This document shows, one piece after another, positions 10,020 to 64,000 of a DNA stretch of 64,000 nt. Positions within the stretch are counted from its first letter, which is position 1. Every line of letters begins with the position of its first letter. A program made the position numbers and the translations under genes. Source of the DNA: Bacteroidales bacterium (GTDB taxonomy: Bacteria > Bacteroidota > Bacteroidia > Bacteroidales > P3); the NCBI GenBank assembly GCA_041673165.1, contig JBAYYI010000003.1, positions 2,090 through 66,089 of the forward strand, written 5' to 3'. The notes below the pieces were generated by a model that did no database searches, had not been told where the DNA came from, and was given only the letters and a program-made list of their open reading frames with translations.

Positions 10020-10050
10020 CAAAAAATCAAAATGCATATCCACCAAATTA

Positions 10051-10082
10051 ATACGCTGAAAGGATTTGCTGAATCAAAGGAA
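10051..10082 (+). repeat. Dispersed 31-nt intergenic core element, copy 1
   Basis: ATACGCTGAAAGGATTTGCTGAATCAAAGGAA. The shared consensus with the copies at 27058, 36065 and 52296 is CGCTGAAAGrATTTnnTGAATCAAAG. Confidence 0.8.
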
Positions 10083-10151
10083 TAAAAAATTAAAACGCCG
10101 TAATAATTTTCTAAAACAAAGAAAGGATTTCCTAAAATAGCGTTTCATTTC

Positions 10152-10238
10152 AGTAAGGTGCCACCTTACACATAGTAACCCGCCACCTTACTCGAGTAAC
10201 CTGCCACCTTACTATAAGTAACCAGGCACCTTACTCAA
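10152..10238 (+). repeat. Four tandem 21/22-bp units with core GTAAnnnGCCACCTTAC
   Basis: GTAA begins at 10153, 10175, 10196 and 10218. The first unit, GTAAGGTG-C-CACCTTAC, is a perfect palindrome. Confidence 0.85.
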
Positions 10239-10264
10239 TTAATCCTTAGTTTTAAGAAACTAAA

Positions 10265-10300
10265 CCTTTGATTTGCAATATTATTACTTGATATTTCAAC
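10265..10300 (+). repeat. 36-bp conserved box, copy 1
   Basis: CCTTTGATTTGCAATATTATTACTTGATATTTCAAC. It matches 60568-60603 at 32 of 36 positions. Confidence 0.8.
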
Positions 10301-10372
10301 TCTCATTATCTATCATATTCAATTTCTTGCTAATTCAAGCCTTAAACCTATAAGAAATCCAAAACAATTTCC

Positions 10373-19961: not shown

Positions 19962-20404
19962 CAATAAAATAATATTAATTCCTCTTAAAACTACTTTTAA
20001 TTGCCTTTGAGTATGCGTATTAAAGTTAAAAAACGAGTCGTTATATTATCTTATTTTATTGATTGATTGCAAAGTAAATAGATAAATTCCCTATATCCAT
20101 TAATAATATTGAAATAGTAATAATATATCCATAAGACAAGACTATAAACAATAAGAATATCGAACTTCAAATATTTTTTTAATAAATCAAGGGGCAGAGG
20201 TTGGCACTAAGCTAACTTGTCTTAGTGCAACTCTGAACCTATTAAAGAACATTTACTGAGTGTCATCATTTCACTCTACTAAGGGGGTGTGAAACGGTGA
20301 AACAAGATTCATTTTCAATAGATTGCAAAAAGTAAGTGAAACAAACGTCAAAAAGAGGCGAAAATGGGCAAAAAAATCTGTAGAATTAAAAAGCATTTAC
20401 AGTG

Positions 20405-20530
20405 TCAAAGAATCGACTTAATGAATCAAAGAAAGGATTTCCTTAATCAAAGAAATAAAAAATTAGATCAAAGAACTAATCTCGTGAATCAAAGATCTAA
20501 TTTCTTGAATCAAAGACTTAGAAAACTAAA
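20405..20530 (+). repeat. Six tandem units at an exact 21-bp step with conserved word TCAAAGA
   Basis: TCAAAG starts at 20405, 20426, 20447, 20468, 20489 and 20510. The array abuts the stop of the NlpC/P60 gene (20535). Confidence 0.9.
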
Positions 20531-25785: not shown

Positions 25786-27006
25786 ATGGATTTCAAACCA
25801 ATTCTACAGAATATCGGACTCCACTCAGAGGGATTATTAATCTTCCTAAACACCATAATAAGTCTTTTTCTTATTGGTTTATTTGGCTGGATAGCATATA
25901 TGATAGCAAGAAAATACCTTGCACATCTAATTATTAAAATAGCAGGACATACCTCAACCGATTGGGATAACCTCCTTTTTGATAAGAAATTCTTCCGCCG
26001 TCTTGGATATCTAATTTCCGCCATAGTAATTCAAATAGGGCTAACCTCACTCGACTGGCAGTATATGGACATTATCCACAAATTCATATCAGCCTGGATA
26101 ACCTTTGCATCTGTCTTGCTTATTGGTTCTATTCTTGATGGGGTAAATAGGATATGGGAAAGCTACCCAATATCGAAAGAAAAACCACTAAAAATCTTTA
26201 CGCAAGTCTTGATGATATTTATATGGTGCGTTGCCTTAATAGTAGTAATCAGCATATTCACAGGAAAATCCCTACTCATATTACTTGGAGGACTAACAGC
26301 ATTTGCAGCAGTTCTAATCTTAGTTTTTCAAGACTCAATACTTGGCTTTGTGGCAGGCATTCAGCTAAGTGCAAACAATATGGTAAAGATAGGGGACTGG
26401 ATAGTTATGCAAAATAGGGGGGTTGATGGAGATGTTCTGGAAATCAACCTAACCACTGTTAAGGTTCAAAACTGGGACAAAACCATTACCACAATTCCAA
26501 CTCATAAATTAGTATCTGAATCTTTCACCAACTGGAGAGGGATGGAGGAGTCAGAAGGTAGGAGAATAAAACGTTCTATCAATATAGATATAAACACAAT
26601 CCATTACTTGACAGAACAGGAGATAGAAACTCTTAGAAAGTCTGAACTACTTAGAGACTACCTTGAAGAAAAGCTTAGATTCATTGAAGAGCATAATGCC
26701 TCACATAATACTTTACTTGACAAACGAAGACTAACAAATATAGGCACATTTAGAGAGTATCTTGATTCTTGGCTAAACACACGTCCTGATTTAAATCTTG
26801 AGATGACACATATGGTAAGGCAACTTCAACCAAGTGTAACAGGTGTGCCGATTGAAATTTATTGTTTCTCAGCAAAGCAAAGCTGGATAGAATATGAAAA
26901 AGTACAGTCTGACATCTTTGACCACGTCTTTGCAGTAATGGAATTATTCCACCTCAGAGCCTTCCAATATTCTTCAGGAACAGTTGCCGCATTAGACAAT
27001 AATTAA
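25786..27006 (+). CDS. Mechanosensitive ion channel family protein (MscS-like)
   Basis: 406 aa. N-terminal TM helices followed by the MscS beta-domain pattern KIGDWIVMQNRGVDGDVLEINLTTVKVQNWDKTITTIPTHKL. Confidence 0.8.
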   Translation: MDFKPILQNIGLHSEGLLIFLNTIISLFLIGLFGWIAYMIARKYLAHLIIKIAGHTSTDWDNLLFDKKFFRRLGYLISAIVIQIGLTSLDWQYMDIIHKFISAWITFASVLLIGSILDGVNRIWESYPISKEKPLKIFTQVLMIFIWCVALIVVISIFTGKSLLILLGGLTAFAAVLILVFQDSILGFVAGIQLSANNMVKIGDWIVMQNRGVDGDVLEINLTTVKVQNWDKTITTIPTHKLVSESFTNWRGMEESEGRRIKRSINIDINTIHYLTEQEIETLRKSELLRDYLEEKLRFIEEHNASHNTLLDKRRLTNIGTFREYLDSWLNTRPDLNLEMTHMVRQLQPSVTGVPIEIYCFSAKQSWIEYEKVQSDIFDHVFAVMELFHLRAFQYSSGTVAALDNN

Positions 27007-27010
27007 AAAA

Positions 27011-27090
27011 ATGAATCACTGAAAGGATTTTTTAGATCTTTGATCTAATTTTTTATTCCTTTGATTCAATAAATTCTTTCAGCGATTCAT
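27011..27090. repeat. 80-bp palindromic element containing an inverted copy of the 31-nt core
   Basis: ATGAATCACTGAAAGGATTT (27011-27030) versus the reverse complement of AAATTCTTTCAGCGATTCAT (27071-27090): 18 of 20 match. The centre holds AGATCTTTGATCT. The core copy lies on the minus strand at 27058-27089. Confidence 0.8.
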
Positions 27091-27158
27091 TTTTCTCTAT
27101 CCTAATACTGCGATTTAATCAAAGAAATTAGTAATTTTGTTGATTAATATGTTGTTTT

Positions 27159-36040: not shown

Positions 36041-36119
36041 ACCAATCAAAGAAAGAGAAAAATGAAACGCTGAAAGAATTTACTGAATCAAAGAAAGAAT
36101 TTTTTAAAGTGGCGTTTCA
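36041..36119 (+). repeat. Core element copy (36065-36096) inside an 8-bp stem / 41-nt loop structure
   Basis: AAACGCTGAAAGAATTTACTGAATCAAAGAAA. TGAAACGC (36063-36070) pairs with GCGTTTCA (36112-36119). TCAAAGA occurs at 36046 and 36088, which is 42 bp apart. Confidence 0.8.
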
Positions 36120-52273: not shown

Positions 52274-52347
52274 CAAACGCTGAAACAGTAAATTAATACG
52301 CTGAAAGAATTTCTTGAATCAAAGATCTAATTTTTTAAATCAAAGAA
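52274..52347 (+). repeat. Core element copy (52296-52326) plus partial copy, phased at 21 bp
   Basis: ATACGCTGAAAGAATTTCTTGAATCAAAGATC. CGCTGAAA occurs at 52278 and 52299. TCAAAGA occurs at 52319 and 52340. Confidence 0.8.
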
Positions 52348-55522: not shown

Positions 55523-58414
55523 TTAGTTATTGTGTTCAGCCTTTGGCATGGTGAAAATAAAATCACTTCCTTTGCCTAATTCTGATTCTACCCAAATAAG
55601 TTCTTCATGTTTTTGTATAAGTTCTTTAACAATCGATATCCCTAATCCAGTGCCTTTTTCCCCTTGGGTTCCTACTTTTGTTTCGTTAGAATCGCTAATA
55701 AATAGTTGATTTGCATATTCCTGATCCATTCCAACTCCGTTATCAGAGATGGTTATTTGAATCTTATTGTCTTTTTCCTTTGATTCAACCTTGATTTCAC
55801 CATTTTTGTTGGTGAACTTGATTGAATTACTTATTAGGTTTCTCAATATTGTTTTCAATATATTGATATCTGCTTCAATATATAAGTTGTCTGGAATTGA
55901 ACAAGAAAGGGTTATATTTTTAACTTGAGCATGTGTGTTTAAATTCTTAAATGTATGTAAAACAACTGCTTTAAGTTCAAACACTTTTTTGTCAACATCC
56001 ATTATACCTGACCTAACTCTAAGCCAAACAAGTATTTCTTCCATTAGTTTGTATCCCTTTTCAGAACTTTCGTTTATGATACCTGTAAATTCTTTTATAT
56101 TCTCCTTATCTATTTCCTCTAAGTTATCTAAAATATATTGAGAGAATCCTATTATTGATGTGAAAGGATTTTTTAAATCATGAGCAAGTATCCCAATAAA
56201 CTTGTCCTTATCGAAGTTAATCTTTTGAAGATCTTTGGTAAAGGCAATGATTTTCTCTTCTTTTTCTTTTCTTTCAGATATATCAAAGAAAGTCACAACT
56301 GCACCGATGGCTTCTCCTTGGTGTATTTGAGGGTATGAGAAATACTCTGCAGGGAAATATGAACCATCTTTTCTCCAAAACACCTCATCAGCCGAATGCA
56401 TGCCTATATTGTTTGTAAAAGCTTTGTAAATAATGCAGTCATGTATGTTCATAGGATTTCCATCTATATCTGAATGATGAATTAGGTTATGTATGTTTTG
56501 ACCTAGTAAATCCTCTTCTTTTGAATAGCCAAGAATATTTAGGCAAGCTTTATTAGCAAATGTGCAATTCCCATTATTATCTATTCCATATATACCTTCT
56601 GCGGTTGAGTTTAATAGTAGGCTTATCTTTTCTTCTTTTTCTTTTCTTTCAGTTATATCAATGAAGGTTAGAACAGCTCCAATAACTTCTTCTTTATGTA
56701 TTTGAGGGTGAGAAAAGAGCTCAACTGGAATTTTTGAACCATCTTTTTTCCAAAACACCTCATCAGACGAATGCATACCTTTACCGTTCTTAAAAGCATT
56801 TTCAATAGTGCAATCTTGCGTTTTGATAGGTTTGCCTTCAATATCTGAATGATGAATTAGGTTATGCATGTTTTGACCTAATAATTCTTCTTCTTTTGAA
56901 TAGCCAAGTATATTTAGGCAAGCTTGGTTAACAAATGTGCAATTCCCATTATTATCTAATCCATAAATACCTTCAGCAGTAGAGTTTAATATTAGGTTTA
57001 TCTTTTCTTCTTTTTCTCTAATAATATCTTTTTCCTTCAATATCTCTGTAATATCTCTGCTTATACTAATAATTCCGATAACTTTCCTATTATCGTCAAA
57101 CAAAGGAATTTTATTAGTCTGTTCTTGTCTCGTTTCTCCATTAACATCACAGAACAAATTAATCTTCCCTTTTAGTTGCTTGCCTGTTTGAAAAACATTA
57201 TCATCTTCTTCTTGATACTCTTTTGCTCTATCCTCAGGGACAAGATCTCCATAGCTTTTACCAATAATATCTTTCCAACTATTATAGCCAGTAAGTGTTG
57301 CAAGACTTTGGCTACAAAAAACTATTTTCCCATCTTCATTCTTGAAGAGTACATAATCAGTTATATGTTCCAAAAAAGTTTCAAAGTAACGGTTGAATAA
57401 TAAATACTCTTGTTCTTGTTCTTTCTCATGAGTTAAATCTTGAAGAGTAAGGAAAACTCCATAGCCTTCAACTTTTAGCGGTTCTGAACTTAGTCCAATC
57501 CATTTGATTTGGTTTTCTTGTTGTAATCCAACTTCAAAATTAGAAATAGAAACTCCTTTTTCCAATGTTTTTATACCCGGACATTCATCATCAGGAACAG
57601 GGCTTAGGTCAGGATAAATAAAGCTAAAGTTTTTTGAATGCAAATTAACACTTAGTAAATCTTCTTTTGAAGCTCCTAAAATATTTTCTGTAGCTCTATT
57701 GCAGTCAATAATATTACCCTCCTTGTCAGTAAGAATAACCCCCTCATGAAGAGTTTGAAAAATTGATTTGTATTTATGTTCACTTTCCTCAACCTTAACA
57801 AAAACATCCTTATAAGCAGAGTTTAATGTGTTGAGTTCAATATTATTCTTATCAAGTTCTTTTACCAATTTAATAAAAGCTTTATTGAAATAACTTATTG
57901 AACTAATAAGGATTATTGCTGTAATAAATATAGTAAATAATGCATATATCCAGCTTATAAAATTAGCGTTAAAAGCATTAAAGTCTATTTCTCTAACAAA
58001 TAGCTTGTTTAAAATAGAATATTCAATTACAATATAGCCTAAGAGGGCAATAATAGAATAGATTATTCCTAATTTTTTACCGTATAAAACAGTAATTATT
58101 GCAATACCAATAAGACATAAGAAGTGACCACCAGAAAATCCAAAGTATAAATTCCCTACAAATCCTGAAATAAGGAATAATGAACCGACAATATGAGATT
58201 TTAGAATAATGGATAGTTTGTTTCTTAAAAGGAAAATAACCGAAATGAGTATAAACATGCTACAAAACAAAACATAATTAATATCAAATCCATATTCAAT
58301 AATTTGAATTAAAGAGAAAGCAATTGCAGGAAGGGCTAAAATTAATAAACTAAGAATAGAATATTTGAATAGTTTCTCTCTAGCTGAATTCATTTCCGTT
58401 TTTAAGTCTTTCAT
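55523..58414 (-). CDS. Membrane-bound multi-PAS sensor histidine kinase
   Basis: The track ORF starts at 58504, which would overlap the tRNA-Cys terminator. I moved the start to the ATG at 58414 (MKDLKTEMNSAREK), 48 nt downstream of a TATTTTTG -7 box. It has about 6 TM helices, 4-5 PAS modules, an H-box (ILAHDLKNPFTSIIGF) and an HATPase domain (DNGVGM, GTGLGISIVKEL). Confidence 0.8.
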   Translation of the reverse strand: MKDLKTEMNSAREKLFKYSILSLLILALPAIAFSLIQIIEYGFDINYVLFCSMFILISVIFLLRNKLSIILKSHIVGSLFLISGFVGNLYFGFSGGHFLCLIGIAIITVLYGKKLGIIYSIIALLGYIVIEYSILNKLFVREIDFNAFNANFISWIYALFTIFITAIILISSISYFNKAFIKLVKELDKNNIELNTLNSAYKDVFVKVEESEHKYKSIFQTLHEGVILTDKEGNIIDCNRATENILGASKEDLLSVNLHSKNFSFIYPDLSPVPDDECPGIKTLEKGVSISNFEVGLQQENQIKWIGLSSEPLKVEGYGVFLTLQDLTHEKEQEQEYLLFNRYFETFLEHITDYVLFKNEDGKIVFCSQSLATLTGYNSWKDIIGKSYGDLVPEDRAKEYQEEDDNVFQTGKQLKGKINLFCDVNGETRQEQTNKIPLFDDNRKVIGIISISRDITEILKEKDIIREKEEKINLILNSTAEGIYGLDNNGNCTFVNQACLNILGYSKEEELLGQNMHNLIHHSDIEGKPIKTQDCTIENAFKNGKGMHSSDEVFWKKDGSKIPVELFSHPQIHKEEVIGAVLTFIDITERKEKEEKISLLLNSTAEGIYGIDNNGNCTFANKACLNILGYSKEEDLLGQNIHNLIHHSDIDGNPMNIHDCIIYKAFTNNIGMHSADEVFWRKDGSYFPAEYFSYPQIHQGEAIGAVVTFFDISERKEKEEKIIAFTKDLQKINFDKDKFIGILAHDLKNPFTSIIGFSQYILDNLEEIDKENIKEFTGIINESSEKGYKLMEEILVWLRVRSGIMDVDKKVFELKAVVLHTFKNLNTHAQVKNITLSCSIPDNLYIEADINILKTILRNLISNSIKFTNKNGEIKVESKEKDNKIQITISDNGVGMDQEYANQLFISDSNETKVGTQGEKGTGLGISIVKELIQKHEELIWVESELGKGSDFIFTMPKAEHNN

Positions 58415-58461
58415 AAAAAGGAGTTTTAAAATGATAAGGTTAATATATTGATAACAATACG

Positions 58462-58469
58462 CAAAAATA
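58462..58469 (-). promoter_or_regulatory. -7 box TATTTTTG (membrane PAS kinase)
   Basis: Plus-strand CAAAAATA, 48 nt upstream of the ATG at 58414 and downstream of the tRNA terminator. Confidence 0.45.
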
Positions 58470-58492
58470 CAATAAATGTTATAATATAAAAA

Positions 58493-58518
58493 CAAAAAAG
58501 CCACCTTGTGAGGTGGCT
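58493..58518 (-). terminator. Rho-independent terminator downstream of tRNA-Cys
   Basis: On the minus strand AGCCACC-TCACAA-GGTGGCT is followed by TTTTTT (plus-strand AAAAAA at 58493-58498). Confidence 0.7.
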
Positions 58519-58739: not shown

Positions 58740-59771
58740 ATGGAATTTACTGCAGGACAAATTGCCCAAATGTTGGGAGGAATGGTAGTGGGAAATGAAA
58801 ATGCTATCGTTAACACTCTTTGTAAGATTGAAGAAGGAACAGAAAAGGGGATGTCTTTCCTTTCAAACCCTAAATACGAACATTATATCTACGACACAAA
58901 AGCTTCAGTGGTTATTGTGAATAAAGGCTTTGAACCGGATAAAGAACTAAAGACAACAATTATAAAAGTAGATGACGCATACGGTTGTTTTGCAAAGGTC
59001 TTAGATATCTATAATGAATATATGCTAAACAAGACAGGAGTTTCTTCTCTTTCATTTATTTCAAAGTCTTCTTCAATCGAAGGGGAGCCTTATGTAGGAG
59101 AGTTTGCCTTTATTGGAGAAAATGTGAAAATAGGCAAGGGAGCAAAGATATATCCCCATGTTTATATTGGTGACAATGTTCAAATAGGCGATAATGTCAC
59201 CTTTTTCTCAGGTGCAAAGGTTTATCATTCTTGCATAATAGGGAATAATTGTAGCATTAACTCAGGAGCTGTTATCGGAGCTGATGGTTTTGGTTTTGCT
59301 CCCCTTGAAGATGGTTCTTTTAAGAAGATTGCACAAATAGGAAATGTTATTTTAGAAGATAATGTCGATATTGGAGCAAACACAACAATAGACAGAGCAA
59401 CAATGGGAAGCACTATAATTAAAAAAGGAGTAAAATTAGACAACCTTATTCAAATAGGACATAATGTAACAATTGATCAAAACACAGTTATTGCTGCACA
59501 AACAGGAGTTTCTGGTTCAACAAAAATAGGTAAGAATTGTTTTATTGGAGGTCAAGTTGGATTTGCAGGACATATAGCAATAGGCGACAATGTTAAGATT
59601 GGAGCTCAGTCAGGCATTATGTCTAATATTGCAGACAATTCAAGCGTTTTTGGCTCACCTTCTTGGGATGCAAGACCATATATGAAAAGCTATTCGTTCT
59701 TTAGAAAGCTTCCAGATCTTGCCGCAAAAATAAACGAACTTGAAAAAAGGATAAAAGAATTAGAGAAATAA
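58740..59771 (+). CDS. lpxD: UDP-3-O-acylglucosamine N-acyltransferase
   Basis: 343 aa. N-terminal LpxD domain, long left-handed beta-helix hexapeptide repeats (IGDNV.IG...) and a C-terminal coiled coil. Confidence 0.9.
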   Translation: MEFTAGQIAQMLGGMVVGNENAIVNTLCKIEEGTEKGMSFLSNPKYEHYIYDTKASVVIVNKGFEPDKELKTTIIKVDDAYGCFAKVLDIYNEYMLNKTGVSSLSFISKSSSIEGEPYVGEFAFIGENVKIGKGAKIYPHVYIGDNVQIGDNVTFFSGAKVYHSCIIGNNCSINSGAVIGADGFGFAPLEDGSFKKIAQIGNVILEDNVDIGANTTIDRATMGSTIIKKGVKLDNLIQIGHNVTIDQNTVIAAQTGVSGSTKIGKNCFIGGQVGFAGHIAIGDNVKIGAQSGIMSNIADNSSVFGSPSWDARPYMKSYSFFRKLPDLAAKINELEKRIKELEK

Positions 59772-59776
59772 AAATA

Positions 59777-59816
59777 AAACAACCCTATGCAAAAAGCGTA
59801 GGGTTGTTTCTTTTTT
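59777..59816. terminator. Bidirectional terminator between convergent lpxD and folE
   Basis: AAACAACCCTA (59777-59787) pairs with TAGGGTTGTTT (59799-59809), followed by CTTTTTT. An A-rich run precedes it for the opposite strand. Confidence 0.8.
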
Positions 59817-60423
59817 AAGAAAGCTTTGAACTTATAAGCTGAAGAAATTCCGCTCTTGTTTCACTCTTAAGAAAAGCACCAGTGAAGTCAGAAGTCGTAG
59901 TAACAGAATTTTGTTTCTGAACACCACGCATACTCATACAAAGATGTCTTGCCTCAATCACAACAATAACCCCAAGTGGGTTTAGGGTTTCTTGAATACA
60001 ATCTTTAATTTGCTTAGTTAAACGCTCTTGAACCTGAAGTCGGCGAGAAAAGCACTCCACAACACGAGGAATCTTACTAAGTCCAACAATCTTTCCATTA
60101 GGAATATAGCCAACGTGAGCCTTTCCAATCATAGGAACCATATGATGCTCACAAAGAGAATAAATCTCAATCTCCTTAACAATAACCATTTGTTTATAGT
60201 CCTCATTAAAGGTAGCAGAGCGAAGAATCTCAACAGGGTCTTCATCGTAACCGTGAGTGAAGAACTGCATAGCCTTTGCAACCCTCATAGGAGTATCCAA
60301 AAGCCCCTCACGAGAGGCATCCTCCCCAATCAAAGTTAAAATCTCTTTATAGTGATGAGCTAATTTCTCAAGGGTTTCTGGGTTATATCTTTCAGTTTTT
60401 TTATATCCTTTATCAATATCCAT
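59815..60423 (-). CDS. folE: GTP cyclohydrolase I
   Basis: 202 aa. Motifs: [45 protein letters not shown]. Confidence 0.95.
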
Positions 60424-60462
60424 AAGAATTATTTTGTCTGTAAAAATCTAAATATTAAGATG

Positions 60463-60470
60463 CAAAATTA
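60463..60470 (-). promoter_or_regulatory. -7 box TAATTTTG (folE)
   Basis: Plus-strand CAAAATTA, 40 nt upstream of the ATG at 60423. Confidence 0.5.
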
Positions 60471-60567
60471 TGAAAATTAAGCTCACAATCCATAAAAAGG
60501 CAATAAATAATTATTAAATAGAAAATCTTTCGCATGGAAAACAAAGAAAGGAAGTCGCAACCTGACA

Positions 60568-60603
60568 CCTTTGATTTACAATTTTATTACTTGACATTCC
60601 AAC
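60568..60603 (+). repeat. 36-bp conserved box, copy 2
   Basis: CCTTTGATTTACAATTTTATTACTTGACATTCCAAC. It matches 10265-10300 at 32 of 36 positions. Confidence 0.8.
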
Positions 60604-60709
60604 TATAATATAAAAGCATAAGTAATTTGCTGGATTATAAGCTGGATTTGTTCTTGGTTCAGTAAGTTCCTAAGTAAGGAATCCAATAAAAGGGAAATGT
60701 TTTGTTTTT

Positions 60710-60733
60710 TCATTTATTTTGTTTTCCTTTGCA
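60710..60733 (+). repeat. 24-nt exact repeat TCATTTATTTTGTTTTCCTTTGCA, copy 1 (within a similar block of about 55 nt)
   Basis: Identical 24-mer at 61884-61907. The flanking upstream 30 nt is also similar (AGGAATCCAATAAAAGGGAAATG versus AGGAATCAAGTGAGGAAATT). Confidence 0.85.
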
Positions 60734-60808
60734 GTGTTGAAATAGCTTAGCTCTTAGTTATGACGTCTTTGGTCTAAGCCTTATTTAAGAAAACCAACCA
60801 AATAATAA

Positions 60809-60840
60809 GAATATCAATTGGAAAGGAATATCAATTGGAA
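60809..60840 (+). repeat. Direct repeat GAATATCAATTGGAA x2
   Basis: 60809-60823 and 60826-60840, identical 15-mers. Confidence 0.8.
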
Positions 60841-60919
60841 CAAAACAAAAGCTAGAGTTTATAATTGCCTGATAACAACAAAAGAAAACAAACTAATAAC
60901 AAAGAAATTCATAAAACAA

Positions 60920-61245
60920 TAAGGCTTTAAATTGATTTAGATAAGGTATCTCTCAATTTTTATAAGCTCATTTTGAATCTGCATAAGCTCATTTTGAATC
61001 TTTACAAGGTAATTGCATACAATAACCGCCATTTTTTGCCCCAAAAACCGCCGGTTTTTGACTGAAAAAAGACTTTTTTTGATTAGAAACCGCCGGTTTT
61101 TGGGGTAAAACTCGGCAGTTTTTGGGTCTCAACTCCTTATGAAAATCTAAAAAGAGCTTATAAGGATTTAAAATGAGCTTATGTAGATTGAAAAAAAGCT
61201 TGTTACGAATTAGAAATAGCTTATATAGATTCAAAAATTACATAT
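60920..61245. repeat. Imperfect palindrome of about 300 bp built from phased 21-bp modules (dyad axis at 61072)
   Basis: ATAAGCTCATTTTGAATCT occurs exactly at 60962-60980 and 60983-61001. Five AAACCGCCGGTTTTTG-type units start at 61024, 61046, 61067, 61088 and 61109. Inverted copies of the first word lie at 61143-61161, 61164-61182 and 61185-61203. 61039-61057 mirrors 61087-61105 with one mismatch. Confidence 0.9.
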
Positions 61246-61274
61246 AATAACCCAATCAGATAACGTTATAGTAA

Positions 61275-61325
61275 AATAAGATAGTATAATAGTAATAATA
61301 ATAGAATAAGATAGCATAATAGTAA
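61275..61325 (+). repeat. AT-rich direct repeat AATAAGATAG(T/C)ATAATAGTAA x2, 30 bp apart
   Basis: 61275-61295 and 61305-61325 are identical at 20 of 21 positions. They lie 50-100 nt upstream of the HU-like gene. Confidence 0.8.
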
Positions 61326-61373
61326 AATAAGAAAACTTAATCATTCGAAATAATCATTTAATAATCAAATAAT

Positions 61374-61799
61374 ATGCCAATAAAATATTTTAGATTAAAG
61401 AAGAAAATTACAATAAACTCAATTCCGGTGGATAGGTATATTGCTAATATTCAAATCGAAACCAATGCTGACCTTGAAATGATTTCGGAGATAATTGAGA
61501 AGCAAAGTACTATGAGTAGGGGTGATATTATGGGAGTGCTTGCTCAACTTGAACCTGCAATTTGGTTTATGCTGGAAAATGGACATCCTGTAACGCTTGG
61601 AGTTTTAGGGACTTTCTATCCTGCAATTGATGCATTGTCGATGGATAGCCCAGAGAAAGTTACTACTAGGACTATTAAAAGATTTAGAACAATTTTCAAG
61701 CCCTCAAAATATCTAAAGAAAAGGTTTAAAGATGTACAATTTGTTCTTGGCGACAACAAGGTCAGGGAAGTAAGATACAAGAAAAAACCTCTTGAATAG
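61374..61799 (+). CDS. HU-family (Bacteroidota histone-like) DNA-binding protein
   Basis: 141 aa. The pattern EMISEIIEKQSTMSRGDIMGVLAQLEPAIWFMLENGHPVTLGVLGTFYP....KRFRTIFKPSK resembles the Bacteroidota-specific HU-like family often found in accessory islands. Confidence 0.6.
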   Translation: MPIKYFRLKKKITINSIPVDRYIANIQIETNADLEMISEIIEKQSTMSRGDIMGVLAQLEPAIWFMLENGHPVTLGVLGTFYPAIDALSMDSPEKVTTRTIKRFRTIFKPSKYLKKRFKDVQFVLGDNKVREVRYKKKPLE

Positions 61800-61883
61800 T
61801 TACAGAATTACCAGAATAGTATAAAATTCAGTCCTCTAACTTCATATTAAGCAGGAATCAAGTGAGGAAATTATTTTGATTTG

Positions 61884-61907
61884 TCATTTATTTTGTTTTC
61901 CTTTGCA
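61884..61907 (+). repeat. 24-nt exact repeat TCATTTATTTTGTTTTCCTTTGCA, copy 2 (upstream of the KAP NTPase)
   Basis: Identical to 60710-60733. It ends 58 nt before the KAP NTPase ATG. Confidence 0.85.
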
Positions 61908-61965
61908 CAGTCATAAGACTTTAATTTTGATTTAATGACACTATATTTTAACCTTTAATGATTGT

Positions 61966-64000
61966 TATGAAAGAAAATCATCCTATAAATTTATTAGAAG
62001 GAAATCCTATAACAAAAATAGAAGAAGATGTTTTTGGAAGAGGAGAGATTGTAAAAAACCTAACTGATTACATTCATTACAGAAAAGATTTATATAATCC
62101 AAAGTGTTTTACTATCGGCTTGTATGGTAAATGGGGAGAAGGGAAAACATCTATTTTGAATATGGTAGAGAGTGAATTATTAAGCAAGAAAGATAACATT
62201 GTTCTAGTTCGATATAATCCTTGGTTTCTAAAAGATCAAGAATCAGTACTACTTGATTTTTTTAATTCAATTTGTGCAGAAAGTTTTGATAAAAAAGTTA
62301 TCAATTTAATTAAAAAATATGGAAGTGTCATTTCATTAGGAACTAAAGGCATTCTAGGACTCTCTGGTGTACCATTAATAGGGGAATTTTTAGACTATAT
62401 AATTAAAGCAATAAAGGGAATTGACAACAACAAACCTATTTCAAAACAAAAAGATGAGGTAAATGAAGCTATTAAAAATTCAGGTAAACATTTAGTTGTT
62501 TTTGTAGATGATTTAGATAGATTAGATTGTGAAGAAATTCATGCTGTTCTAAAATTAATAAGACAAAATACAGACTTTGATAATACAACATATATTCTAT
62601 CTATGGATTATCATATAGTCACTCAGTCAATAAACTCATATTTCTCAGATAAGAAAGAAAACTCAGGGAAAAGCTTCCTAGACAAGATTATACAATTTCC
62701 ATTACATCTACCAACTATACAAAAAATGCATCTTAATAAATTTGCAGAGATTCATATTGATGAATTACTAAGTAGGATTTGGAAAAATCCAAAAGAAGAA
62801 ATCAATATAAAAGATCTAAAATATAATTTAGAAACTTATGTAAATCCATTATTTTTAACTCCGCGAGATATAATACAATATGTAAATATTCTCAATTATA
62901 TTGTTCCTACATTATATAAGGAAGTTGATTTATCTGACTTGTTTTTATTGGAAGCATTAAAGAAATTTAGTTATGATTCTTATGATAAAATAAGGAATCG
63001 TAGGCATATTTTTATATCTAATCCGTTTTTTACCGATTATTACTTAGCAGAGAAATACAAAAAAGATGAAGAAAAAGAAGACATCAGAAAAAAGAACATA
63101 GAATCAATTCATATAAATAATACTTATAATAAGGCTATATATATAAATAAGATTATTGATATATTATTAAATGACTATTTGAACATTGGCGGACTTAAGA
63201 ACCGCAAGAAATTATGTGACCCTAATTTCTTTGATAAGTATTTTCTTTATACTACACCAGATAATCAAATTCCAGAAAAAGAAATTAATACGCTAACAGA
63301 ACTTATAGGAACAGCTGAAATCAATGAAATTGTATTAAAACTTAATGAGTATAACGAGCAATATGGATTTGATGAAATTAGAAGAACTATTGATACAATT
63401 GTTAGATATAGAGATATAGAGAATTATGAGAAATTAATTTCAAATATAACAATTGCATTTAGTTTAATGGATAATGCAATAAAAGATAGAATTTATTTTT
63501 GCTCAATTGTTGATAGAAACATATTTGGAAATTTACTTGAAGAAGTAGATGATGCAGTGAAGCTTAATTATAGATTGATTTTCGAGATAGCTAATAGTAT
63601 AGTTGATAAAGCAGATATTAATTTTTCTATGGAACTTGCTTTGCAAATGGTTAATAATTACGCATATGTTTGTAAAAATGATTATGATGAATTGATTAGA
63701 AAAATTATTAATAAATACATCTCATTAAATGGCGAAATTAGTTTATTTAATATTGAGAGTCCAAGAACCAAAGTATTTATCTTAAAATATTGGAATTTCG
63801 CTATGCCAGAAAACTTTTTAGAAGCTAAAAAGAATGTTATTGAAGATGATAAATTAGATATAATAGGACTTATTAGCTCCTTTATGCAAGAAGAAAAACA
63901 AGACGGCTATTTAAAACTTATTGAGTTGTTTGATAAAGATAAGTTGAAAGAGAAATTAGACAAGAAAATCTCTTTGGTTCAGGAATATGACAAACAATAT
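61966..64000 (+). CDS. KAP-family P-loop NTPase, 5' part (ORF still open at the window end)
   Basis: Absent from the ORF track because no stop is reached. ATG at 61966. It reads MKENHPINLLEGNPITKIEEDVFGRGEIVKNL...CFTIGLYGKWGEGKTSILN (Walker A), NPWFL, a hydrophobic insert (GILGLSGVPLIGEFL), and HLVVFVDDLDRLDCEEIHAVLKLIR (Walker B, DDLDR). This is the KAP NTPase signature. Confidence 0.75.

Follow-up and report, generated by a model that had tools for sequence, protein, structure and literature searches.

What is the long run of phased repeats that fills a gene-free gap beside the gene for an HU-like protein in an uncultured Bacteroidales genome, and what does it do there? The locus lies in a stretch of 64,000 nucleotides (hereafter the window) of contig JBAYYI010000003.1 from the Bacteroidales bacterium assembly GCA_041673165.1 (positions 2,090 to 66,089, forward strand). 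Between folE (59815-60423, minus strand) and the HU-like gene (61374-61799, plus strand), which encodes a protein of the HU-HIG family, the gap holds a lattice of fifteen 21-22-bp modules (60920-61235). An initial annotation, made from the window alone, had suggested that the lattice represents an undescribed class of phased DNA elements, and more than 60 related loci now support this suggestion. As judged from sequence comparisons, the lattice appears to be a previously unnoticed conserved DNA element of uncultured Bacteroidales that accompanies one HU-HIG subfamily; a full-text search on HU-HIG and PF18291, with incomplete coverage, found no published description of it. While the existence of the class and its link with HU-HIG are well supported, its function is a matter of weighing. 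We put it at slightly better than even that the lattice acts in cis as one half of a module whose other half is the HU-HIG gene.

The element of the window has three parts. Its centre (61024-61130), which would be the conserved core, is an array of five A-words, i.e. palindromes made of an A-tract, a GC core and a T-tract. They start at 61024, 61046, 61067, 61088 and 61109, with a 21-22-bp step, exactly where five central units had been placed before. Two positions carry the form CAAAAACCG-C-CGGTTTTTG, two words are degenerate, and AAAAAAG-A-CTTTTTT (61065-61079) sits on the dyad axis at 61072. The left arm (60920-61023) contains five 21-bp modules of a different B-word, with the motif TTTAGAT on the plus strand. 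Two exact copies of the B-word ATAAGCTCATTTTGAATCT were recovered at 60962-60980 and 60983-61001, as originally reported. Against a 19-mer background of 5.5 +/- 2.0 matches, degenerate left-arm copies start at 60941 (12 of 19), 61004 (9 of 19) and 60920 (8 of 19). Two of these had been proposed earlier; the copy at 60941 holds, and that at 60920 is not significant alone. The right arm (61131-61245, minus strand) comprises five 21-bp inverted B-word modules identified by sequence matches. Those at 61143, 61164 and 61185 (15, 17 and 15 of 19, respectively) reproduce the scores given in the annotation, and its weaker rightward copies correspond to 61206 (13 of 19) and 61227 (14 of 19). Neither word occurs anywhere else in the 64-kb window. 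Between the lattice and the ATG lies a 128-nt AT-rich spacer (61246-61373) with its own 30/51-bp repeats (ATAGTAAAATAAGATAG...), which displaces the lattice from the gene; relatives lack this spacer, and in them the lattice reaches the start codon.

The symmetry of the element is real. Around axis 61072, the arms 60943-61071 and 61073-61201 pair at 92 of 129 positions (71%). All axes in the window average 35.3 (standard deviation 5.5) and the best axis outside the element scores 63, while 1000 first-order Markov simulations using the region's own composition gave a mean maximum of 51.7 (standard deviation 2.7) and a highest value of 65. The dyad thus exceeds what AT-rich DNA would produce, and the near-perfect mirroring of 61039-61057 by 61087-61105 was likewise found, at 18 of 19 positions. 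Two trivial origins, both raised at the outset as ways in which the element could prove spurious, were rejected. An assembly artefact is ruled out because ten independent metagenome assemblies agree: contigs from ENA, JGI, Logan and NCBI have identical sequence through the whole element. A decayed gene was dismissed since coding signal was seen neither here nor in relatives. The 81-aa minus-strand open reading frame (ORF) at 60989-61234, previously taken as non-coding, is present inside the element and matched no Pfam family.

The surroundings of homologues (48-69% protein identity) were collected by exact-protein look-ups, a one-genome-per-species scan (18 loci) and a metagenome scan (44 loci). 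Tandem Repeats Finder, which recovers period-21/22 arrays in the gap of the window, located such arrays within ~260 nt of the HU-HIG start at 60 of the 62 loci having at least 190 nt of upstream sequence, which fall into about 20 lineages. In the rest of the 64-kb window it detected no more than four such arrays, which occupy three places outside the gap. The remaining neighbours of the array vary and include glycosyltransferase or capsule-type loci, polyprenyl synthetase together with ClpP, and, in the window, folE and a KAP NTPase. In this comparison the HU-HIG gene, the HU-like neighbour to which the initial annotation had pointed, is the only partner that stays with the array throughout.

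Genomes carry two or three array modules in ordinary chromosomal contexts, for instance at 0.88 and 2.30 Mb of OY782678. Several modules within one genome carry differing cores; core sharing within a genome was observed in 0 of about 8 pairs, which is not significant given about 18 core types. The HU-HIG gene is directly followed by a second ORF (126-135 aa) in nine of the twelve lineages sampled, and this ORF proved to be an HU-HIG paralog in all four that were run against Pfam. The module of the window has a single HU-HIG gene, without the second paralog. No array of their own was found before the second or third tandem HU-HIG paralogs. When cultured Bacteroides or Prevotella relatives were sought, the profile search returned only the uncultured subfamily, and a query with a Prevotellaceae member gave 4 matches.

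Several minor features of the related loci were recorded. A second ORF (126-144 aa) lies 60-90 bp downstream of the first gene in most related modules (L033, L035-L039, L041, L043, L046-L048, L052, L054 and L100), and every one for which a Pfam assignment was consulted is an HU-HIG paralog. Small ORFs of 74-90 aa end just before the arrays in L033 (3526-3789), L035 (3269-3541), L036 (3278-3550) and L037 (3370-3594); one of them has a weak HU-DNA_bdg (PF14848) match, and the window has no counterpart. Loci L046 and L049 (JADLKP010000045.1 and JADLKP010000124.1) come from a metagenome-assembled genome labelled Methanobrevibacter sp. with arrays identical to those of Bacteroidales UBA5515; the bin is probably contaminated. 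In L044 an N run (2806-2920) falls within the right-arm repeats of a related module, and the repeats appear to break assemblies.

The part shared by all these loci is a set of 3-6 A-words, each an odd-length palindrome of A4-6, a GC-rich core of 5-7 nt usually centred on C, and T4-6. Besides the form of the window, examples are AAAAAGTG-C-CACTTTTT, AAAAATCG-C-CGATTTTT, AAAAAGTC-G-CACTTTTT, AAAATAG-C-CTATTTT and AAAAAAG-C-CTTTTTT. Covariation was analysed in 124 distinct units, selected by a minimum of 6 symmetric matches out of 8, a choice that inflates the percentage of paired positions and does not force the core. Core positions +/-1 to +/-3 vary through Watson-Crick double substitutions. 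At +/-3 the pairs were GC (47 units), AT (35) and TA (20), and at +/-2 they were TA (56), AT (22), CG (21) and GC (11). The covariation score amounted to 0.409, compared with 0.135 in shuffles and at most 0.117 in slid controls. Among core mismatches G:T (6) is about as frequent as A:C (5), and the cores therefore give no sign of wobble pairing.

Identity between units differs sharply by part. Within arrays it equals 0.85 for cores, 0.84 for tracts and 0.37 for flanks, and between lineages 0.40, 0.85 and 0.36, respectively. These values identify the tracts as a universal requirement, the core as a lineage-private one and the spacers as free; selection looks to act on the core within each lineage and on the tracts in all lineages. 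Some cores are asymmetric and are then present in both orientations inside one array (L051, L049/50). The sense strand of the arrays has a positive G/C skew at 36 and a negative one at 17 non-redundant loci. Since the immediate flanks of the units are symmetric, with an excess of pyrimidines to the left and of purines to the right, this skew is not read as a strand polarity of the unit.

The spacing of the units is equally strict. Of the centre-to-centre distances, 18 are 21 bp and 32 are 22 bp, with none of 20 or 23 bp; their mean of 21.64 bp corresponds to 10.8 bp per half unit. Across 22 lineages with differing cores, unit centres peak at -61, -83, -104, -126, -148 and -170 from the ATG. 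For this register the Rayleigh R equals 0.72 with p about 1e-5 or below, which is no clean probability because the lineages are related, and the approximate formula becomes invalid (negative) at the best periods. Even so, the cores have changed from lineage to lineage and the register to the ATG has been kept. The 10.5-11-bp periodicity of AA/TT dinucleotides at 61016-61134 is the maximum of the window at 6.4 (median 0.16, 99.9th percentile 4.1), and among 43 non-redundant related loci, 39 have their own highest value in the 310 nt before the HU-HIG start. The A-array is also predicted to be the most curved DNA of the window: in a wedge model, its ratio of end-to-end distance to contour length is the lowest at 0.51, followed by 0.747, with a median of 0.955.

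Outside the A-words conservation is looser. The flanking B-words keep the 21-bp lattice and show a TT(T/A)AGA motif in about 40% of lineages. In the left flank, 22 forward and 4 reversed occurrences of this motif were counted; in the right flank there was one forward and there were 10 reversed. Inverted flanks are significant in 6 of 21 lineages, namely the window (z 8.7), L040 (8.1), L046 (4.6), L051 (4.1), L037 (3.7) and L057 (3.1), and the flanks of L041 and L046 are better matched as direct repeats. Because flank inversion is clear in six lineages only, the 300-bp palindrome is regarded as a lineage-specific elaboration of the general lattice. The long hairpin or cruciform that the initial annotation had considered is therefore not supported as the essential feature, and mismatches show no G:U strand bias either.

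The constant partner of the array encodes a protein of 141 aa that matches PF18291 (E 6.8e-20) and is named "MAG: hypothetical protein WC135_00980" at NCBI. Its AlphaFold2 model (predicted local distance difference test score, pLDDT, 83) has an N-terminal beta-hairpin followed by an HU fold, and the top Foldseek matches of this model were all HU/IHF proteins; we propose this HU/IHF fold with its extra hairpin as the cognate binder of the array. A PDB sequence search with the single protein returned no relevant match, and the profile of the subfamily aligned, weakly (E 0.06), over the full length of Thermotoga HU (1B8Z). Pro92 aligns with the proline of the HU arm motif NPQT, which in HU is the residue that intercalates into DNA. 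The HU-HIG profile matches 2973 clusters at 50% identity, and HU-HIG is thus a large radiation specific to Bacteroidota. The surrounding genes of the window are ordinary chromosomal ones, including tRNA-Cys, lpxD, folE, PAS histidine kinases and a lipid A acyltransferase. Downstream of the HU-HIG gene, a gene for a P-loop NTPase of the KAP family (PF07693, E 2.5e-43) begins at 61967 and continues past the window end at 64000; the protein has 695-698 aa in same-species contigs, and its gene adjoins the module only in this lineage.

As the array stands directly upstream of genes of this HU-HIG subfamily, it is most likely the landing pad or control region of that protein and not an origin. Each 21-22-bp unit could bind one dimer of a DNA-bending protein, always on the same face of the pre-bent duplex, and the dimers together might build a cooperative wrapped complex. 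The binder would be the HU-HIG protein encoded next door, whose specificity may co-evolve with the core, possibly via its variable N-terminal beta-hairpin. Such a complex may feed back on HU-HIG transcription, and it might also serve as a nucleation or titration site. Clustered sites with predicted curvature do lie right upstream of the HU-HIG gene and are conserved with it, which is the layout of an autoregulatory array. Given its HU fold, the aligned proline and a unit length close to the HU/IHF footprint, the neighbouring HU-HIG is the simplest candidate for the binder. Core and protein also diverge together: a core is shared in 68 of 68 comparisons at protein identities of at least 90%, in 58% at 80-90%, in 22% at 70-80% and in 3% at 60-70%. 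In the closest protein pairs with different cores, two independent comparisons (L037 vs L076 and L052 vs L073, the latter 81% identical), the differences lie mostly in the N-terminal hairpin, residues 8-33.

A number of points weigh against this reading. The link between protein and site is drawn from linkage and co-divergence, both of which may be partly explained by shared ancestry. HU-HIG proteins have been argued to be unlikely sequence-specific factors, and no conserved genomic associations were found for them (Burroughs et al. 2017, PMC5499826); the linkage survey in that work covered protein-coding neighbours, not non-coding DNA. There are two word types, A and B, yet one HU-HIG gene in the window, a second paralog being present in most relatives. 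No HU-HIG gene adjoins the similar array at 10152-10242. The curvature figures depend on the parameter table of a wedge model, whereas the measure of AA/TT periodicity is parameter-free. Lastly, the canonical Bacteroidetes promoter box, where recognisable, precedes the array (in the window, L054/L097 and L062), a -7-like TTTGCAG box is likewise upstream of it in the L033 and L049/L050 groups, and no promoter box was found between array and ATG. The array may therefore be transcribed, which would allow a role at the RNA level.

In the window, the promoter-like box consists of TTTG, 19 nt and TTCCTTTG (60701-60731, plus strand), and its putative role as a promoter comes from its fit to the pattern TTTG-N18-21-(TA/Tn/nA)nnTTTG. 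It is the sole such box in the 700 nt before the HU-HIG gene and implies a transcription start near 60738. Matches in scans for TTTGCA and for the canonical Bacteroidetes box were too sparse to place the HU-HIG promoter, and a scan for sigma-70 promoters and terminators revealed no enrichment and no terminators. The promoter-like box is duplicated as a 34-nt sequence (TTTG, 19 nt, TTCCTTTGCA), 94% identical between 60700-60733, which is 640 nt ahead of the HU-HIG gene, and 61874-61907, which is just ahead of the KAP NTPase gene.

A transcribed leader in the 5' untranslated region, folded into small A-core-U hairpins or, in the window, into a 130-bp imperfect hairpin, is quite unlikely in our estimate, and it is kept as the main rival; such an RNA might bind HU-HIG or affect the stability or translation of the mRNA. 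Besides the placement of promoter-like boxes upstream of the arrays and never between array and ATG, it would account for the folding energy of the element, which is -119.8 kcal/mol for the plus-strand RNA (z -13) and -102.2 for the minus strand. Compensatory changes would preserve hairpin stems just as they preserve DNA palindromes, and the 77-bp inverted repeat of P. gingivalis is transcribed (PMC8757827). However, neither the large dyad (G:T 13 vs A:C 10) nor the cores (6 vs 5) have the G:U bias of a folded RNA, many cores would yield 1-nt loops or stems of nearly all A-U pairs, and asymmetric cores are found in both orientations within an array. The strict 21/22-bp spacing, two helical turns, and the 10.8-bp phasing of the A/T tracts are properties of duplex DNA, and long-range pairing of the arms is unconserved, being significant in about 6 of 21 lineages. 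At the gathering threshold Rfam recognised only tRNA-Cys elsewhere in the window, and an E-value scan gave generic hairpins far below threshold. For these reasons we favour an element that acts on duplex DNA.

The lattice could instead be a curved upstream promoter element, or a set of sites for a protein encoded elsewhere, with the HU-HIG gene as a regulated target and no more. What all lineages conserve is the A/T tracts with their phase, the register to the gene start is likewise kept, and the array at 10152-10242 is similarly built and precedes an unrelated gene, all of which would suit this explanation. We nevertheless consider it unlikely, because curvature alone leaves unexplained the GC cores, which are palindromic, uniform within an array and different between lineages, and a regulator encoded elsewhere would need to change in step with every one of the two or three different modules of a genome. 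An iteron-type replication origin or a partition centromere of an integrated plasmid, phage or island, which the initial annotation had brought to mind, is highly improbable. Tandem phased repeats of ~17-22 bp are indeed present: the fifteen modules follow one another every 21-22 bp, some direct and some inverted, and an AT-rich tract lies next to them. The tripartite layout recalls that of R1 parC, and contig L003 diverges left of 60604, a possible island boundary. Against these stand the lack of a Rep, ParA or ParM gene adjoining the element here or in the relatives examined and the absence of DnaA boxes (TTATCCACA-like) from 58925-64000, the whole window containing 23 where 20.7 are expected by chance. 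No ParA/ParM-type partner NTPase is conserved, the KAP NTPase being found in this lineage only. A blastn comparison of the gap with plasmids and phages, one of the checks originally proposed, yielded no plasmid match and a single 34-bp phage match at chance level (E 6e-3). In viral contigs no HU-HIG relatives were found, and searches with the words hit 22 loci, of which 21 were single matches and one was a double match ~860 bp apart, with no array. Moreover, several modules occur per chromosome, and the element diverges along with a chromosomal gene.

Just as remote is a mobile or switchable element, either a palindromic repeat resembling a miniature inverted-repeat transposable element or an invertible promoter as in Bacteroidales capsule loci. 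The inverted arms around a 140-bp centre and the position of many relatives inside polysaccharide loci would fit. But within the window both words are confined to the element, and no gene for a recombinase or transposase adjoins it. Only one orientation is seen in the ten independent assemblies, and the element keeps its place relative to the ATG from lineage to lineage while it diverges with the HU-HIG gene. In addition, since the centre is itself palindromic, its inversion would alter little.

The favoured module of lattice and HU-HIG gene has partial parallels among described systems. In E. coli, hns with its curved upstream DNA and fis with its six Fis sites are autoregulated genes of nucleoid proteins. 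As in these cases, where binding of the product upstream of its own gene gives feedback control, the gene of an architectural or DNA-bending protein is preceded by curved DNA or clustered sites, here putative ones. The HU-HIG loci differ in the strict 21-22-bp lattice of long palindromes, the lineage-specific core and the HU/IHF-superfamily protein. In plasmid R1, parC contains two sets of five 11-bp repeats around a promoter, and pSM19035 has arrays of omega heptads; in both, a small dimeric protein (ParR or omega) binds the upstream repeats cooperatively to form a curved or ring-like complex. By analogy, the phased direct and inverted repeats in a tripartite arrangement upstream of a small-protein gene may be comparable, although the present module has no ParM or ParA partner NTPase, is chromosomal, is built from 21-22-bp units and involves an HU fold rather than a ribbon-helix-helix protein. 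Theta-replicating plasmids carry phased iterons of about 17-22 bp, which resemble the lattice in unit length, phasing and mixture of direct and inverted copies, but here there is no Rep gene, DnaA box or replicon. IHF recognises its sites through the narrow minor grooves of A-tracts that flank a kinked centre, and these sites are asymmetric and single. The fold of the HU-HIG protein matches that of IHF/HU-DNA complexes (1IHF and others) and ~20 bp per dimer is plausible; the sites of the window and its relatives, unlike those of IHF, are symmetric, tandem and variable in the core.

The nearest described case in Bacteroidota, with a different anatomy, is the 77-bp inverted repeat of P. gingivalis and its HU protein PG0121, which we take not to be an HU-HIG. 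This large imperfect repeat is located in a surface-polysaccharide locus that also encodes the DNABII protein PG0121, and the protein prefers the repeat in vitro (PMC3969353, PMC8757827). The repeat and the HU gene are at opposite ends of a ~19-kb operon (PMC3969353, PMC8757827), a 550-nt antisense RNA is encoded between the two 77-bp arms (PMC8757827), and PG0121 is described as highly similar to E. coli HU (PMC3969353). Both systems combine a Bacteroidota genome, a large imperfect inverted repeat and a DNABII-type protein, whereas a 21-bp lattice and A-tract palindromes are not described in those papers.

The array beside one HU-HIG subfamily, conserved, exact in its geometry and diverging with the protein, offers a testable lead on the function of a large family. 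Its natural series of about 18 site variants bears on how an HU fold could read sequence, and the arrays are an unusually clean natural case of phased A-tract curvature that may regulate capsule loci in Bacteroidales of the gut and of anaerobic digesters. A more far-reaching proposal, which we regard as doubtful, is that the HU-HIG subfamily consists of sequence-specific architectural proteins with a private, fast-evolving palindromic code that the N-terminal beta-hairpin may read, each provided with its own pre-bent, phased landing pad. If it were true, the self-contained pair of protein and positioned solenoid would constitute a new bacterial chromatin element or an orthogonal switch, often in surface-polysaccharide loci, and the published view of HU-HIG as non-specific would be overturned.

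The initial annotation had also grouped the element with the other 21/22-bp arrays of the window, and this kinship holds in part. The array at 10152-10242 is of similar build, while the AATCAAAG arrays are a different dispersed repeat. The former has four 21-22-bp units, GTAAGGTG-C-CACCTTAC followed by three copies of GTAACCnGCCACCTTAC; it resembles A-words with the core GTGCCAC, and TAAG/CTTA replaces the A/T tracts, as in L052. A gene with MutS domain V follows ~200 bp downstream of this array, no HU-HIG gene is nearby, and the array could represent an orphan site or else a target in trans. The dispersed intergenic family is composed of 21-bp modules of GAATCAAAGAA plus 12 variable nt, often after CGCTGAAAGGATTTGCT, with copies at 10045-10100, 20403-20520, 27030-27100, 36054-36110 and 52290-52346, mostly at the 3' ends of genes or between convergent genes. 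Segments 26995-27099 and 20426-20530, which belong to this family, are among the next most curved of the window by prediction.

Two further repeats were noted. A 38-nt box, ACCTTTGATTT(G/A)CAAT(A/T)TTATTACTTGA(T/C)ATT(T/C)CAACT, is found to the left of the element (60567-60604) and to the right of the 10152 array (10264-10301). The same-species contig L003 diverges exactly at the end of this box (60604), which could be an island boundary or the end of a chimeric contig; the first 60 nt of L003, from its divergent part, have no match elsewhere in the window. Finally, a 375-bp tandem duplication (two copies, 84% identity) occupies 56256-57017 inside the 993-aa ORF 55523-58504; the same-species gene has PAS, HisKA and related domains, and the duplication appears to encode PAS-like repeats.

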